Source: Gloeobacterales cyanobacterium ES-bin-313 (lineage in GTDB: Bacteria; Cyanobacteriota; Cyanobacteriia; Gloeobacterales; Gloeobacteraceae). From it: a stretch of 64,000 nt of DNA. The notes under the pieces are model-generated. The model was not told where the DNA came from, searched no databases, and saw nothing but the letters and a program-made list of their open reading frames with translations. Below are positions 2,212 through 18,843 of the stretch, one piece after another. The translations under genes and the position numbers were made by a program. The DNA lies in assembly GCA_014379585.1 (NCBI GenBank), contig JACMLN010000098.1, forward strand, positions 1 through 64,000, given 5' to 3'. Each line of letters starts with the position of its first letter. Positions within the stretch are counted from its first letter, which is position 1.

Positions 2212-4122
2212 CTAAAGAGGTTTGTCCGGCTCACCCTTCGTCTGAGCGTTCAACGTGGAAGGATCAGGGACATCGCCATTGGCAGATGGGATGGATCCAT
2301 CCTTGCGCGCACCGAAGTTTTTGACCAAGTCAGCGATGTTTTCTCCCGCCTTTCCGAGGAGGCGACCCGCTTCGCCCTCGGTGCCTGCGAGGAAGCCGTC
2401 TATGCTGCGGCCAAGACCCATACCTTTCATATAGGACTCGATCATTTTCTGGGCGCTTGCCGGATCGCCGAACATTGTGAAGTTGCCCTTCGCAAGGAAT
2501 TCGCCTAGGGCGCGGGCGATTGCCACCTGCGACTCGCGGCCAGCCTCGATGCGCAGTTTTGAAAGTTCGAATTCGAGCGCCGCATTCCCGTACTGCTCCC
2601 GGCCAGCGAGCATCTGGATTTCTTGATCGTTGCGTTGTTTTTGAAGAACGACGCGCGCCTCTTCGACTTGAATCTGGTTGCGCTCAACATTCACTGCCAC
2701 CATCCGCTCTGCCGTCTCGCCCTCGGCGCGAAGGGCAGACGCCTTGGCCTCGCCCTCTGCAAGGCGTACCCGAGCGTCGTACTCGGACTCGGCGGCGGCT
2801 TTTTTCGCCTCTGCTTCCTTCTGGATACTGTAGGCGTTGACATCGGCCTCAACTTGGCGGCGGTAGCGCTCCTGCTCCGCTTCTTTGCGAGCTGCGATCA
2901 GTTTTTGTTCGCCCTCGCGCTCAGCAGCGGCAGTCACCTCGACAGTGCGGACAGCCTGTTCGGAGCGCGCCCGCTCAGCCTCGGCGACAAAGCGCAGGCT
3001 ATCGGCGTCGGCTTTGTCGGCATCGGCGGCGGCGATCGCAGTCTGCTTCTGGCGCTCGGCGGTTTCAACTGCCTGGGAGCGTTCGACTTCTGCGAGTTCT
3101 TGCTCGCGTCTTTTGAGCAAGATCAGCCTCTGGGATTCGATCTGCGATTCTTCGATTTTGCGCTGTTTTTCGATGTCGCGCTGGGCTGTACGCTCTTCTT
3201 CTTCGAGTTGCACCCGGCGGGACTCTGCTTCTTTCTGCGTCTGAATTGTTGCCTCGCGCGCCTTCTGTCCAGCCGCCGCCTCTGCCACCTGCGCTTTGTT
3301 GATCGCCTCGGCCTCGGCGCGGATGCGCTCCTGTTCGAGCACACTCAGCCTTGTGGAAACATCTTTTTCGGTGCGAGCCTGCTCAGCGTCGCGCTCGATC
3401 CGGTTGCGTTCCACCAGAGCTGTCTGAGTGATCTCTGCAATCCGTCGCAAACCCTGGGCATCGAAAACGTTGTTCGGGTCGAGCAGTTTTGTGTTGGTTT
3501 GGTCGAGTTTGGAGACAGTCACCGATTCGAGGGTGAGGCCATTGGACTTGAGATCCGCCTCGACCGCCGACTTGACCTCAGCGGCGAATTCTTCGCGTTG
3601 GCCGTTGAGTTGTTCGAGAGTGCGGGTGGCAGCCACCGACCGCAAAGTCGAATCGAGCTTGTCTTTGATCAGTTCTTCGATGGAACCAGGGTCGGAGGCT
3701 TTGTCGCCTAGGGAGCGAGCCGCGTTCAAGACATCCTCTTGGTTGGGCTGGACGCGGAGGTAGAACTGGGCTTTGAGGTCGGCGCGCAGTTTGTCTTCGG
3801 TGACAAGGGCATCGCCACCGAGGCGGTCAACGTCGAGGCGGATGGTTCCTAAGGGCACGCGCACAGTTTCGTGGAGTACAGGGATCACCAACGCCCCGCC
3901 ATCAAGGACAACAAGTGCCCCACCCCGACCAGTACGGACAAAAGCGGTGTCAGCTTTTGTGCGCACGTAGAGCTTGGTGAAGACAATCACGAAGGTGCCC
4001 AGTACCAGCAGCACCACTCCAAGCCCAGCCACAGTCAGTTGTACTGGCCCCTCGATCGGCAGCAGGAAAGGGCCGACGATAAGACCTAGACAGAAAATCA
4101 ACCAAAAAATGGCGCTTATCAC
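2212..4122 (-). CDS. flotillin-family (SPFH/band-7) protein, YqiK-like
   Basis: N-terminal TM segment, SPFH-like core, long EA/RQ-rich coiled coil, typical flotillin length (636 aa). Confidence 0.8.
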   Translation of the reverse strand: MISAIFWLIFCLGLIVGPFLLPIEGPVQLTVAGLGVVLLVLGTFVIVFTKLYVRTKADTAFVRTGRGGALVVLDGGALVIPVLHETVRVPLGTIRLDVDRLGGDALVTEDKLRADLKAQFYLRVQPNQEDVLNAARSLGDKASDPGSIEELIKDKLDSTLRSVAATRTLEQLNGQREEFAAEVKSAVEADLKSNGLTLESVTVSKLDQTNTKLLDPNNVFDAQGLRRIAEITQTALVERNRIERDAEQARTEKDVSTRLSVLEQERIRAEAEAINKAQVAEAAAGQKAREATIQTQKEAESRRVQLEEEERTAQRDIEKQRKIEESQIESQRLILLKRREQELAEVERSQAVETAERQKQTAIAAADADKADADSLRFVAEAERARSEQAVRTVEVTAAAEREGEQKLIAARKEAEQERYRRQVEADVNAYSIQKEAEAKKAAAESEYDARVRLAEGEAKASALRAEGETAERMVAVNVERNQIQVEEARVVLQKQRNDQEIQMLAGREQYGNAALEFELSKLRIEAGRESQVAIARALGEFLAKGNFTMFGDPASAQKMIESYMKGMGLGRSIDGFLAGTEGEAGRLLGKAGENIADLVKNFGARKDGSIPSANGDVPDPSTLNAQTKGEPDKPL

Positions 4123-13954: not shown

Positions 13955-14027
13955 GCGCTCGTAGCCTAGGGGATCAGGCAACAAACTTCTAATTTGTCTT
14001 ACGTAGGTTCAAGTCCTACCGGGCGCA
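13955..14027 (+). tRNA. tRNA-Arg (anticodon UCU)
   Basis: Hand-folded cloverleaf: acceptor GCGCTCG/CGGGCGC, anticodon stem ACAAA/TTTGT, loop CTTCTAA, T-arm GTAGG-TTCAAGT-CCTAC, discriminator A; 73 nt. Confidence 0.8.
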
Positions 14028-14036
14028 CTCCAAGAC

Positions 14037-14500: not shown

Positions 14501-15517
14501 CTAAATGAAGACGACCCGCTCTGGCTGCTCGATAACGCGCCCGACGGTGAAAACAACTTCGCCTTGATCGTACAGGAAAGTCTTGAGATCTTCTGCTTGC
14601 TCTGGAGGGCAAGCGATCACCATACCGAGACCTTGGTTATAGGTTTTGTCCATCTCACTCTGAGAAACGGAGCCAACTTCGGCGAGCCAATGAAATATCG
14701 GTGGAACCGCCCAAGAGCCACGTTGGAGTTCGGCGCTCAGACCACCGAGGGCACGGGGAATATTTTCAACGAGGCCACCGCCAGTGATGTGGGCGATGCC
14801 GCGCAAGTCGAAGCCCGCTTTTAGAGCAGCCAGAACAGGTTTGACGTAGATGCGCGTTGGGGTCAATAGGGTTTCACCTAGCGAGGCAGTGAAACCTTCG
14901 GGGCTTGCATCCCACGGGAGGCCACTGAATTCGACGATACGGCGGACAAGGCTAAAACCGTTGGAATGCACACCACTACTGGCAAGGCCAATCAAGCTAT
15001 CGCCCGGACAGACCCGCTGAGGATCGATCATTTTGCTGCGTTCGACGATGCCGACACAAAAACCGGCAACATCGTATTCGCCGGGGGCATAGAAACCAGG
15101 CATCTCCGCTGTTTCACCTCCGATCAGGCTACAGCCCGCTTGAATACAGCCATCGGCAATCCCCTCCACCACACCTGCCATCTGTTCCGGCGAGAGTTTC
15201 CCGGTAGCCAAGTAATCCAAGAAAAACAGAGGTTCTGCACCCTGGGCAAGCACATCGTTCACGCACATTGCCACACAGTCGATGCCAATCGTATCGTGGC
15301 GATTCAGGGCAAAGGCGAGTTTGAGTTTGGTACCCACACCATCGGTACCAGCCACCAGAACTGGTTCTGTGTAGCCAGTAGGTAGAGCAAACAGACCACC
15401 AAATCCGCCTAAGCCCCCTAACACACCAGGGCGATGGGTTCGCTCCACAGCCTTCCTAATCCGCGAGACCATGGCATAGCCCGCTTCAATATCGACGCCC
15501 GCTGATTTGTAATCCAT
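14501..15517 (-). CDS. purM: phosphoribosylformylglycinamidine cyclo-ligase (AIR synthetase)
   Basis: [14 protein letters not shown]-terminus and full-length PurM-like sequence. Confidence 0.95.
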
Positions 15518-15533
15518 AAGAAGCTTCCGTTTC

Positions 15534-15628
15534 GCTGGTATCTTTTTGCTGTTACCCCTACTACCTTCCCATGTTGCGCAGGCAGTTTACAACGCAAGCA
15601 ATATTCGCGGGATTGGGATGGGCTTCTG
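15534..15628. repeat. direct repeat copy 1 (about 95 bp, about 90% identical to 16416-16510)
   Basis: Aligned by eye: gctggtatcttttt[g/a]ctgttacccctactaccttcccatgttgcg ... shared at both loci. Confidence 0.85.
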
Positions 15629-15777
15629 CCCAACCTGCCCGTAGGAAGTTGTACCGTAGAAGAGAGCTGGGAAATAAGCTGGGAGAGCTTCTAGAAAGCA
15701 AGTTACGAGTAGTTTTTCATCGGCAAGCAGTTTCATCAAAAAAGCTCTGATCCAATCACTAAAAAGGAACATTACTT

Positions 15778-16008
15778 ATGGCAACGATTACGCTTCAAGA
15801 AGCACAAGCCAAATTGCCCGATCTCATTCACAATCTCAAACCGGGTGAAGAGTTGCTCATTACAGAGAATGAGCGTCCACTAGCAAAGCTAGTCGGGCAA
15901 TCGCTTTCGGTATCCCAACGTCCTGGGCCAGGGCTTTGTAAGGGAATGATAACCATCGTTGAAGATGATGATGAACACTTGCGGGACTTTGCCGATTACA
16001 TGCCATGA
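15778..16008 (+). CDS. Phd/YefM-like type II antitoxin
   Basis: MATITLQEAQAKLPDLI ... GEELLITENERPLAKLV pattern; ATGA overlap with the downstream PIN gene. Confidence 0.55.
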   Translation: MATITLQEAQAKLPDLIHNLKPGEELLITENERPLAKLVGQSLSVSQRPGPGLCKGMITIVEDDDEHLRDFADYMP

Positions 16009-16391
16009 GGTACCTTCTCGATTCCCATGTACTGCTCTGGTACACACTCGGCGAAGCGCAGCTCAGTGGTACGGCAAGCAGGTTGATTTTGGATGCAGCC
16101 AACGAAATTCTGATAAGTCCAGCATCTTACTGGGAGATTGCCATCAAAGTCAGCATTGGCAAACTCGCTTTGCATCAGCCCTACGAGGATTTTGTGGATG
16201 CGTGTCTAAACAGGTACGGTTTTACGATCCTTCCTATTACTCCAAAACATACGAATGCCTTGACCACGATGCTCTTTCACCACAAAGATCCATTTGATCG
16301 TCTCTTAGTGGCTCAGGCGCTGGTAGAAGAGATTCCCATCGTAAGTATCGATGTCATTCTCGATAAGTATGGGATCAAGCGTATCTGGTAG
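16005..16391 (+). CDS. vapC: PIN-domain VapC-family toxin
   Basis: YLLDSHVLLW, SPASYWEIAIK, DPFDRLLVAQA, IVSID conserved acidic residues. Confidence 0.8.
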   Translation: MRYLLDSHVLLWYTLGEAQLSGTASRLILDAANEILISPASYWEIAIKVSIGKLALHQPYEDFVDACLNRYGFTILPITPKHTNALTTMLFHHKDPFDRLLVAQALVEEIPIVSIDVILDKYGIKRIW

Positions 16392-16415
16392 CTAGAAGGC
16401 TGATTTGCCGTCAAG

Positions 16416-16510
16416 GCTGGTATCTTTTTACTGTTACCCCTACTACCTTCCCATGTTGCGTAGGCAGTTTACAACGCAAGCAATATTTGCGAGTTTGGGG
16501 TGGGCGTTTG
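16416..16510. repeat. direct repeat copy 2, overlapping the promoter, start codon and signal peptide of the downstream gene
   Basis: See copy 1. Confidence 0.85.
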
Positions 16511-17271
16511 CCAGTTTGCCCGCCCGCGCAGATCTAGAAGTGCCCCTTGAACCTTTTTTGCCCATCCCCGGTTGGCTTGGCTTTGCCACGGTAGTCGGCA
16601 AAAAGCCACAACGCTTTACTTGGTCACCCAGACATCCTAAGGCCCAAGTCGTCATTCCTGACCAAGAGCAATTTTGGCTGAAGTCTTCAGTCGGTACGAA
16701 ACTGATCGCCATCGACAGTACGGGTAGTGCTGGGGTGAATTCTCTGGGCTTCTCAGAACAGCGCTATGGCTGCGAGGGCAACACCATGGGTATGGCTGGG
16801 TTTAGCGGGAGCCGAACGTTGCGCGAAGGTCCTGTCTGGCTGTTGCCGGGAGATTCGACTGCGCGGGTCTTTGCTGTACCTGTCACTGAGAAATCCACAG
16901 GCAAACCACAAAGCTCGGTGCGGACGTGGAGTATTGGTTCTTACAATCTCACCCTTCGCAAGACGGCTGCCTACGCTGTCAAGCTTGACACGGCTTTCGG
17001 TGGTCGTACTCTCCTAAGTGAACCCCTCAAAGTGTTGGATATAGCTGGTGCCGAAAATCAACCTGTCAATCTTCCCAAACTTTTTGCACCCAACAGTCTT
17101 CAGCCCGGTATCCCCCGACCGATTGCGGCCTTCCAAATGGGTTTCGGAGCCCCTTTGGCAATTATTCTCTGGATTCCAGGCTTCGAGGGCAACGATTTTC
17201 AGTTGCTTCTTGCCGAATCGACCCAAGCACGCCGCATTGATGCTGCCTACTTCTATTCTTGCGCTTTTTAG
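16453..17271 (+). CDS. secreted hypothetical protein
   Basis: Signal peptide [26 protein letters not shown]; no catalytic motif. Confidence 0.45.
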   Translation: MLRRQFTTQAIFASLGWAFASLPARADLEVPLEPFLPIPGWLGFATVVGKKPQRFTWSPRHPKAQVVIPDQEQFWLKSSVGTKLIAIDSTGSAGVNSLGFSEQRYGCEGNTMGMAGFSGSRTLREGPVWLLPGDSTARVFAVPVTEKSTGKPQSSVRTWSIGSYNLTLRKTAAYAVKLDTAFGGRTLLSEPLKVLDIAGAENQPVNLPKLFAPNSLQPGIPRPIAAFQMGFGAPLAIILWIPGFEGNDFQLLLAESTQARRIDAAYFYSCAF

Positions 17272-17390
17272 CACTTAAAGTACATATAAAAACATGAAGT
17301 CAAGCTGGCACGCTTCAGAGCAATCAGGCTTACTTCTGTTTCTCAAGGCTAGGCGATTTAATTAGCTTGATCTGGCCAGGATCGTTCAGA

Positions 17391-17834
17391 TTACAAAAAC
17401 CAGCCTTCATCGTCAGCATCCTGGATCGGTGCAGGAAAAGAAATGACTTCGCGCTTCATATCGTTGGCTTTGGCGCGCAGAGGAACAAGAGCACTTTGTG
17501 GTTGTGCCGGAGCGAGGGTGGTCTGCGGTTTTGCCTCGACTTTCGCAGGTTTTTCAAGCTTTGCAATGCGCTCTAGAAGCTCTTGCTCGCGCTTGCCACT
17601 GGCTGCTTTTGCGTCCTTCAAAAAGGCTTCGAGTTCAGCAACACGTTTGGCAAGGTCTGCTTCGTGGCGATGTTTTTCTGAAACTATCGGCTTTTCAGCT
17701 TCAGATAGCTGTTCAGATAGGGCTGCAATTTGCTCTTCGGCGCGGCCAAGGGCGGTTCGCAGTTCAACAATCGTCACTTCAAGATCTGCTTTGGTCGGAA
17801 CGCGTCTAGGGGTATTCATCGGGGTCTCACTCAT
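17391..17834 (-). CDS. coiled-coil hypothetical protein, last gene of the rbc operon
   Basis: E/K/A-rich heptad-like sequence; 8-nt overlap with the raf1 stop. Confidence 0.45.
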   Translation of the reverse strand: MSETPMNTPRRVPTKADLEVTIVELRTALGRAEEQIAALSEQLSEAEKPIVSEKHRHEADLAKRVAELEAFLKDAKAASGKREQELLERIAKLEKPAKVEAKPQTTLAPAQPQSALVPLRAKANDMKREVISFPAPIQDADDEGWFL

Positions 17835-18843
17835 CGGTCTGCCAGGGATCTTTCACGAGTTCTTCATCGAGAATAATCCTAGCGCGCAAAATCAAAATCA
17901 CTTGCCCTAAAAGGGCGGTTTCAGCTTCTTCAGCGAACCACTGTACCCCGGTAGCCGTGAGAAAATAGGCTTCTTGATCCCAGGTTTGTTGTTTGCGGTC
18001 TACGACTACGAGAACTTCTTCGAGCCGTCCTTCAAGACCGAGATCCGCGCTCGTTGCCAGAATAACGACTGGATCTACTGCTTTTTGGATCACTTGCCAA
18101 CCAGGCAGGGCAACCCACTGGGCACTGCTGCCAGAAGCCACCCGAAAAGGGCCAGATTCTGCCACGGCTGGCGCCGATTGCACGACCTCAACAGCAATAG
18201 GCAGACGACCCAACACCGGGAAGACGCGGGGGAGTTCCTCGCCATCTTCGAGGCGGTAGGTGGGCAGACGGGGGGCACGCGCCTTAGGTGACTCTGCCAT
18301 CTGCATCAATAAAGCTTCAATTTCTTTGCGGGCGGTTTCGCTGTGAGCCGAAGAAAGTCCCTGGGCGATCAAACGCGACCGCTCCCGGATGTCTTCGGTC
18401 TGCTTCGCCAACTTCCAGCAGCGGTAAGCAAGGGCATCCCCTGGGTGTTTCGTAAATCCAGGCGGGGGCGAATAGCCTTTCATCGCCCGGACAAGTTCGT
18501 GGGTGCGATCCACATCCAAACCTTTGGCTTGAATAAACGTCGCAGCCTCGACCCGCTCTGGCCCAGTCAGCACGCGCAACTCGTACAAAACATTGCTGCC
18601 GCTCTGCTCAAAGTGGGCAAGCACTTCAGCAGCGGCGGCAGCTTTTTCAAGGCTCCCAAAGACTTGGGAGCTGACGATGAACTGATTTTGGCGCGACGGC
18701 TCGAACCCCGTAGCCTCAAAGATGACCTGGGGGTCAATGCGCTGCTCCTGCAGTTGGTGGCACTTCTGTCCCCACTGCACCCAGTTGCCTTCCTTGCGGC
18801 GCAGGGAAAAGAGCAACGCTTCGGCGTCGAACGCTTCTGTCAT
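17827..18843 (-). CDS. raf1: Rubisco accumulation factor 1
   Basis: RRKEGNW, FEATGFEP, HPGDALAYRCWKLA, ERSRLIAQGL, W.ALPGWQ and VVVVDR segments as remembered for Raf1; start ATG overlaps the rbcS stop (TAATG). Confidence 0.7.
   Translation of the reverse strand: MTEAFDAEALLFSLRRKEGNWVQWGQKCHQLQEQRIDPQVIFEATGFEPSRQNQFIVSSQVFGSLEKAAAAAEVLAHFEQSGSNVLYELRVLTGPERVEAATFIQAKGLDVDRTHELVRAMKGYSPPPGFTKHPGDALAYRCWKLAKQTEDIRERSRLIAQGLSSAHSETARKEIEALLMQMAESPKARAPRLPTYRLEDGEELPRVFPVLGRLPIAVEVVQSAPAVAESGPFRVASGSSAQWVALPGWQVIQKAVDPVVILATSADLGLEGRLEEVLVVVDRKQQTWDQEAYFLTATGVQWFAEEAETALLGQVILILRARIILDEELVKDPWQTDE

Follow-up and report, generated by a model that had tools for sequence, protein, structure and literature searches.

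A foreign vapBC toxin-antitoxin (TA) segment of about 770 bp appears to have been inserted, once, into the 53-bp control region shared by purM and the gene for a predicted secreted protein of 272 amino acids (aa), duplicating some 112 to 128 bp of the target and using no recombinase encoded by the element itself. The locus lies in a stretch of 64,000 nucleotides, referred to here as the window, which comprises positions 1 to 64,000 of contig JACMLN010000098.1 from Gloeobacterales cyanobacterium ES-bin-313. We put the probability of this reading at about 0.7. The movement of bare TA cassettes between chromosomal sites without a mobility gene is poorly understood, and the evidence at this locus is clean, comprising one filled site, six empty ones and another filled lineage, which is diverged.

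The vapBC pair and its flanking repeats

A repeat search of the window places a pair of direct repeats at 15534-15630 and 16416-16512. The copies are 97 nt long, agree at 89 of the 97 positions (92%) and lie 882 bp apart from start to start; a local alignment of the two gives identical limits. Since this pair is the sole direct repeat of at least 35 nt across the whole 64 kb, it is not a chance resemblance. A first-pass annotation of this DNA had described direct repeats of about 90% identity bracketing a TA pair, and that is indeed the arrangement, with the antitoxin and PIN toxin genes lying between the copies. If a 3-nt in-frame indel is allowed, the homology between the copies probably extends to about 15645 in copy 1 and 16530 in copy 2.

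Copy 2 (16416-16530, plus strand; ungapped core 16416-16512) comprises 37 nt of upstream DNA, the ATG at 16453 and the signal peptide of an intact 272-aa gene (16453-17271, plus strand). It thereby carries the real start of the secreted-protein gene, as had been claimed. The N-terminus of the product (MLRRQF...ARA/DLE) could be either a Tat-type or a Sec-type signal peptide. Copy 1 (15534-15645, plus strand; ungapped core 15534-15630) is contiguous with purM. It has the same ATG, at 15571, followed by 24 codons homologous to the signal peptide, here decayed; the frame then enters unrelated sequence and stops at 15750. The resulting 59-aa open reading frame (ORF; 15571-15750, plus strand) consists of the duplicated start, the 24 signal-peptide residues and then unrelated basic residues supplied by the cassette leader, and so corresponds to the truncated remnant that the first-pass annotation had placed there. 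It matches no Pfam or NCBIfam model and occurs elsewhere only in an identical contig, L001.

The left resident gene, purM (14501-15517, minus strand), encodes AIR synthase and is transcribed away from the insertion, with copy 1 as its upstream region. Its product matches Pfam AIRS (E=4e-27) and AIRS_C (E=7e-31) and carries the NCBI name phosphoribosylformylglycinamidine cyclo-ligase. At the other end of the cassette, the 24-nt spacer between the vapC stop and copy 2 (16392-16415, plus strand) bears a weak likeness to the 16 nt adjoining the purM start codon, clearest against the allele of lineage E, one of the empty lineages described below (TGATT..CCGT..GCTGG). The diverged contig L004 keeps this spacer, which may be a duplicate of those same 16 nt that has since decayed. 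Because it resembles native, purM-proximal intergenic DNA, the duplicated target may measure 112 bp and possibly up to about 128 bp.

The earlier proposal that promoter, start codon and signal peptide had all been duplicated holds for the start codon and the signal peptide. The promoter part is unproven, and the upstream DNA duplicated with certainty is only the 37 nt before the ATG. A consensus scan of 15300-17500 gave no sigma-70-like promoter and no credible terminator. Its lone terminator-like match, on the minus strand within vapB, is below the 2.6 expected by chance, and the scan found no terminator between vapC and the 272-aa gene.

Two further contigs bear on whether the repeat pair could be an assembly artefact. 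Logan contig L001, which was separately assembled, has the whole two-copy arrangement at 100% identity, and L004, a diverged JGI contig, repeats the right junction. An artefact is therefore unlikely, and we rejected this explanation.

Both genes of the cassette lie on the plus strand. The first, a vapB-type antitoxin gene (15778-16008), encodes 76 aa with a Phd/YefM-like N-terminus. The protein matches Pfam PF02604 (Phd/YefM) at E=4.7e-5, below the gathering score, and the NCBIfam models TA_VapB (E=1e-5) and phd_fam (E=0.006), both below their cut-offs; it has 127 homologues at E<=1e-20, many of which are named Phd/YefM antitoxin and many of which bear PF02604. The second gene, vapC (16005-16391), has a start that overlaps the vapB stop in ATGA. 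Its 128-aa product is a PIN-domain toxin (Pfam PIN, 44 bits against a cut-off of 23.6) in which an alignment of 10 sequences shows the acidic residues D6, E44, D98 and D120 to be invariant and D116 to be nearly invariant. VapC homologues (n=4805) occur in cyanobacteria, planctomycetes and other groups as well as on plasmids, and a comparison with PDB sequences gave no match. The pairing of vapB with vapC is kept in all relatives examined. The pair would presumably act as an ordinary VapBC module, in which a PIN ribonuclease (RNase) toxin is neutralised by the antitoxin and the genes are auto-repressed by it.

Upstream of vapB lies a cassette leader of 132 nt (15646-15777, plus strand). Its 15704-15777 part is homologous to the leader of L006, the closest related cassette; the preceding 58 nt (15646-15703), directly after copy 1, fall outside the homology to related cassettes. 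The vapBC genes are probably transcribed from their own leader, in part shared with L006, together with the resident promoter region in copy 1. This transcription may read through into the 272-aa gene.

Empty and filled sites in related lineages

Contigs encoding relatives of the 272-aa protein, together with their cluster members, fall into eight lineages, A to H, at this locus. Lineage A, the window itself, is filled and serves as the reference for gene-body DNA identity. Lineage C (L004, 89.5%) is also filled. The remaining six are empty: B (L002/L003, 92.4%), D (L012/L013, 89.6%), E (L014/L015, 83.9%), F (L005, 81.2%), G (L019, 81.5%) and H (L100). Each of these has purM, a single repeat copy and then the 272-aa gene, with a gap of 53-54 bp between the genes. 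This is the empty site, purM directly before the secreted-protein gene, for which the first-pass annotation had advised looking in related genomes, and it supports the claim that a cassette was inserted by recombination at the 5' end of a resident gene. Moreover, emptiness in all four distant lineages marks the filled state as derived.

The same comparison bears on a different history, in which the resident gene was duplicated in tandem long ago and its upstream copy was later mostly replaced by the TA pair. The start codon of copy 1 is indeed intact, and the signal peptide survives there for the most part. However, its homology ends inside the signal peptide, a second copy of the gene is present in no relative, and the six empty lineages, the four most distant included, have a single gene next to purM. 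A functional gene at copy 1 in relatives, which the first-pass annotation had named as the sign of such a duplication, was looked for, and no relative has one. We find this history barely credible.

The resident protein that defines the survey is narrowly distributed. It has no Pfam or NCBIfam domain, and its homologues comprise only three clusters in the same Gloeobacterales group plus proteins at 34-36% in the myxobacteria Archangium gephyra and A. minus. A scan of GTDB-representative genomes with an alignment of the 272-aa protein returned the distant Archangium homologues only, and a 20-mer that is invariant in every repeat copy had no match in the metagenome contig collection.

A two-step origin is also improbable. 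Here the control region would first have been duplicated in tandem, after which the foreign VapBC fragment entered beside or between the two copies, or took the place of part of a longer duplicated segment. This scheme needs two rare events at one place, and its intermediate, two copies without the cassette, is found in no lineage. In its favor, tandem duplications are frequent, a two-step route that starts with tandem duplication and goes on to homologous recombination has been discussed as the alternative for a similar rRNA-gene pattern (PMC3457768), and the stretch 15646-15703 is without a traced origin.

The age of the insertion can be judged from lineage C. Contig L004, which begins inside vapC, agrees with the window in the end of vapC, the 24-nt spacer and the junction to GCTGGTATC. 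Nine positions differ across these 98 nt (90.8% identity), and the flanking gene is about 10.5% diverged. The vapC frame is still open in L004, with three amino-acid changes relative to the window. A shared right junction, together with a cassette end as diverged as its flanks, argues for a single, old insertion. Judged from these sequences, the insertion would be one event older than the split between lineages A and C, and the distribution of the cassette an old presence/absence polymorphism and not a recent transfer. The insertion footprint recognised in the first-pass annotation thus stands, but it is not recent, since L004 shares the junction with a cassette end that is about 9% diverged. 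The antitoxin search did not recover the vapB of the L004 lineage; its next best match, at 82%, lies in an unrelated WD40 context.

These observations also bear on a Campbell-type scheme, in which an 882-bp circle made of one repeat copy and the cassette, either excised from an occupied allele or acquired by transformation, integrates by a single crossover within the 112-bp homology. Such a crossover yields exactly the observed structure, and it may contribute to the spread of the cassette: occupancy is patchy among close lineages, and mosaic identities show that DNA has been exchanged between lineages at the locus. As an account of the insertion itself we consider it unlikely. It explains spread, not origin, since the first circle already needs target homology. 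Furthermore, the L004 cassette end, diverged to the same degree as its flanks, gives no sign of recent transfer, and no circular form was observed. A foreign-looking patch around the insertion was sought and not found, identity to L002 being even, at 90-96%, up to the junctions.

Identity over 4.1 kb is 94.9% between A and B, 94.0% between A and C and 92.9% between B and C, with D outermost; divergence at four-fold sites is 22.5% (A-B), 28% (A-C) and 24% (A-D). The relationships of lineages A to D at the locus are nearly star-like and mosaic. In its Raf1 segment (17650-18250) the window shares 93% identity with L004 and only 88% with L002; the neighboring 272-aa gene shows the opposite order, and this reversal points to homologous recombination between lineages. 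The emptiness of lineage B could accordingly be read in either of two ways, as loss by recombination between the repeats or as homologous reshuffling of empty and filled alleles. Within about 4 kb, the sole other difference between the window and L002 is a 118-nt non-coding insertion at 17272-17389, unique in the window, which lies between the convergent stops of the 272-aa gene and a 147-aa gene. Lineages B, C and D are without it, and there the two genes are 1 nt apart.

The two repeat copies of the window have diverged unevenly. The eight core differences are at repeat positions 15, 46, 73, 77, 79, 85, 91 and 93, that is, two in the first 72 nt and six in the last 25, and the copies have exact runs of 30 nt and 26 nt in common. 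Past the core, copy 1 departs from every known allele at about one-quarter of positions and by an indel. The well-kept 72 nt run from the upstream DNA through the start codon into the first codons; on the copy-1 side they are also the sole DNA upstream of purM. A T at 15553/16435, absent from all other lineages, is common to both copies, as is the CC at 15557-8/16439-40, and this argues for gene conversion besides purifying selection. We infer that these two forces have held the 5' 72 nt alike while the useless signal-peptide remnant of copy 1 decayed. Neutral decay that began before lineages A and C split would probably yield about as much divergence as that remnant shows, given the four-fold divergence of 28% between those lineages. 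An origin of the copy-1 remnant from the C/D lineages, considered on account of an "AAC" motif, was rejected, as a manual count gave five mismatches to each allele type.

A probable insertion without mobility functions

The cassette has a GC content of 46.2%, against 53-55% in the flanks, and the insert of about 770 bp contains vapB and vapC as its only genes. Its nearest VapBC relatives (88, 85 and 80% aa identity, the last being Gloeobacter violaceus gll2024) occur in unrelated contexts and without flanking repeats. DNA homology to them is limited to window positions 15704-16391; for L006, blastn covers 15704-16388 at 82.5%. For about 4 kb on each side of the insertion, the gene set is the same as at the empty site of L002, and the annotated neighbors are housekeeping or RuBisCO genes.

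Pfam detected no transposase in the cassette, and there is no integrase or transposase within about 4 kb on either side. The repeat search found no terminal inverted repeats at the cassette ends, and Rfam gave no match at E<=1. The only nearby tRNA is tRNA-Arg at 13955-14028, and none lies in the repeat. An attC-like hairpin was also sought, and the repeat, treated as single-stranded DNA, folds no better than shuffled sequence (z=-0.35). We rejected an insertion sequence or transposon on the grounds that there is no transposase, there are no inverted repeats and the duplication is about 100 bp or more. The first-pass annotation had judged the repeat too long for a transposon target-site duplication, and this judgment holds; the repeat is also derived from the target. 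An integron gene cassette was likewise rejected: the repeat is native target DNA with no hairpin excess, and no integrase lies within about 4 kb.

A further possibility is a site-specific recombinase acting in trans, with the repeats as attL and attR of a minimal, integrase-less element. A core site could lie within the stretches of 30 and 26 nt that match exactly, and one member of the VapBC family, L077, is flanked by duplicated 3' halves of tRNA-Ile, a classical att target. Even so, we regard this as very improbable here, where the target is not a tRNA and the surrounding 4 kb on either side is free of integrase genes. Moreover, the repeat is native to the empty site over its full length and not borne by the element, and related cassettes have no terminal sequence in common.

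In the reading that we favor, insertion with duplication of the target, a linear foreign fragment would have been joined to the chromosome by illegitimate recombination, of the non-homologous/end-joining or the replication-associated kind. The two chromosomal joints would have been 112-128 bp apart, on two strands or on sister copies, and fill-in after joining would have generated the target duplication. Copy 1 would then serve purM, and copy 2 would supply the start codon and signal peptide of the 272-aa gene. Each of the divergent neighbors would in this way receive its own copy of the shared 5' region, allowing the event to survive. A simple insertion would sever one gene from its 5' region; duplication avoids this, which would explain why the event persisted and, more generally, why events that rescue both genes sharing a tiny divergent control region survive. 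The flanking repeats would permit RecA-dependent precise deletion of the cassette, making the insert reversible in line with its presence/absence polymorphism, and the flanking homology would permit occupied and empty alleles to be swapped between lineages. Either deletion or allele exchange would explain the patchy presence.

Several points weigh against this reading. Copy 1 of L004 was not recovered, the contig ending inside vapC, and the identity of the left junction is assumed. An empty site left by precise repeat-mediated deletion looks the same as an ancestral empty site, and the mosaic locus tree is compatible with different numbers of losses or allele transfers. The papers on long target duplication establish no joining chemistry. 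Lastly, the promoter scan located no site, so that the retention of a control region by each gene is inferred.

Insertion with long target duplication has been described before (Nobusato et al. 2000, Gene 259:99; Furuta, Abe and Kobayashi 2010, PMC2853133). In the latter study, units without mobility genes lie between direct repeats, 30-420 bp in length, whose counterpart at the empty site is a single-copy target, and the repeats often span a translation start or stop, keeping the target gene intact. The mode was reported there for restriction-modification (RM) systems of all types, including a Microcystis case with 88 bp. It has since been ascribed to "RM systems and other DNAs" (PMC3457768) and, in a review of both RM and TA systems, to RM systems only (PMC3874152). 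We used the class criteria of Furuta et al. (2010), namely repeats of >30 bp, an empty site, an insert of <20 kb, no mobility gene, and no tRNA, att or multicopy repeat. The present locus has a repeat longer than 30 bp, a single-copy target in six empty lineages, a 770-bp insert and no mobility gene; its repeat is neither a tRNA nor an att site and is present in two copies in 64 kb. It departs from the published screen in its cargo, a PIN toxin and antitoxin in place of an RM system, a difference that concerns the screen and not the type of rearrangement.

The likeness to the described cases thus extends to a mobility-gene-free unit, start-spanning repeats, an empty site and cargo of the addiction type. 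The difference is that the cargo here is a type II TA pair with an RNase toxin. Full-text literature searches found no description of a TA cassette with long target duplication. Both the VapBC family and this mode of insertion were known already; TA cargo would be new to the mode, of which the locus is a well-documented example. It indicates that a type II TA pair can arrive by the route described for RM genes, with a target duplication of about 100 bp. Because the toxin is an RNase, the cargo cannot cut DNA, which argues against a need for DNA cleavage by the cargo in this route. This constrains models of the insertion mechanism and is mildly informative. The practical value is modest, being one well-supported example and a lead on repeat enrichment around the VapBC family.

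Among known TA loci, gsl2025/gll2024 of Gloeobacter violaceus is the same overlapping pair of 76-aa and 128-aa genes, with 78-80% aa identity and the PIN acidic residues. Unlike the window cassette, this pair and the other close relatives lie at unrelated sites and have no flanking target duplication.

Two other kinds of mobile DNA invite comparison. Lambdoid phage 21, e14 in icd and the tRNA-targeting islands encode an integrase and bring a replacement gene end. Their integration likewise leaves long imperfect repeats, one of which keeps the target gene working while the other is the displaced remnant; in contrast, the present locus has no integrase, and the sequence of the two copies is that of the native target. 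The second kind, the minimal mobile elements of Neisseria, are cassettes swapped between conserved genes by transformation and homologous recombination. What defines them is that different cassettes alternate at one site; target duplication is not required. The purM locus resembles them in that, within a mosaic population, a small cassette between conserved genes is present in some lineages and absent from others, and in that other lineages carry alternative inserts on the far side of purM, but the site between purM and the 272-aa gene shows one cassette type and the empty state only.

Other VapBC loci and other indels near purM

To survey the VapBC family, we compared the 600 nt upstream of vapB with the 600 nt downstream of vapC at 80 further loci. 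Sufficient flank was available at 75 loci, the window included, and at E<0.01 a direct repeat was found at 14 of these other than the window. At E<=1e-8, flanking repeats were found at 10 of 74 other loci and in 1 of 79 shifted control segments (Fisher P=0.003, the controls overlapping and not being fully independent). At E<0.01, about 450 control segments taken from other long loci yielded five weak matches (24-42 nt, 74-83%), not counting the repeat of the window itself. The family repeats are locus-specific, with no matches across loci, and they fold no better than shuffled sequence (z from -1.2 to +1.4). Conserved cassette ends were sought among the repeat-flanked members and not found; leaders run from 30 to 351 nt and spacers from 1 to 86 nt.

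At least four two-copy cases resemble the window: L021, L039/L038, L078 and L086. In L021, a 29-nt repeat (383-411 and 1210-1238) starts at the ATG of the ORF downstream of vapC. Its upstream copy heads an ORF that apparently ends after about 12 codons, and the upstream neighbor is another PIN gene. Empty sites were obtained for none of the other repeat-flanked family loci.

The remaining repeat-flanked loci are of several sorts. L034 and L063 have REP-like palindromes, and L061 has a tandem vapC paralogue. L077 (744-1745) contains a VapBC cassette of about 900 bp between direct repeats of 45-52 nt that are the 3' half of tRNA-Ile(GAT). Such repeats are a classical integrase-insertion footprint; no integrase-sized gene was noticed on the 3.2-kb contig, whose other ORFs were without a Pfam scan. 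In L050, L058 and L079, the repeat occurs in three copies, at intervals of 700-1000 bp, between successive small TA cassettes. These arrays (L050, 1887-3804; L058, 2163-3713; L079, 6-1574) contain VapBC, a PIN_3 gene and a MazE-like gene, with repeats of 36-86 nt, and the repeats do not fold like integron attC sites. Either one target has received several insertions in succession, or these are cassette arrays of a kind not yet described; both are possible.

It is conceivable that long, variable target duplication is a general recombinase-free route for the VapBC family and for addiction modules at large, and that the repeats would serve excision, amplification and re-insertion, as Kobayashi's group proposed for RM units. 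The excess of flanking repeats over the shifted controls at E<=1e-8 and the four window-like loci speak in favor of this generalisation, which we regard as doubtful. The repeat-flanked set is heterogeneous, with REP-like palindromes, a tRNA fragment, a tandem paralogue and three-copy arrays, and it yielded no empty site; the arrays led us to downgrade the generalisation.

The 3' side of purM is a second indel hotspot (at about 14493/14494 in the window). Lineage E has a ParE-type toxin gene and an antitoxin gene just 3' of the purM stop, between CCCCTTGACA and ATCTAA (L014, 3140-3920; the same in L015), and at this very position an unrelated insert, about 120 nt long, is found in lineage D (L012, about 3700-3920). 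The ParE cassette was considered as a parallel to the window case and rejected, as it lies beside purM but without target duplication; the insert of lineage D is likewise without one. Gene order is not kept on the downstream side of the 272-aa gene. In lineage G this region holds a Phd/YefM antitoxin gene and a fragment of a DDE transposase (L019, 4874-5468). In lineage E, PPC/PEP-CTERM and PhoD genes replace the Raf1-rbcS-rbcX-rbcL block (L014, 5841-8378).

In the window, Raf1, rbcS, rbcX and rbcL near the insertion fit a cyanobacterial host. The record of the source metagenome-assembled genome was first labelled Anaerolineae, and the Raf1, rbcS and rbcX genes of the window support the assignment to Gloeobacterales cyanobacterium ES-bin-313. 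The name ES-bin-313 also occurs in a paper on a High Arctic glacier metagenome.

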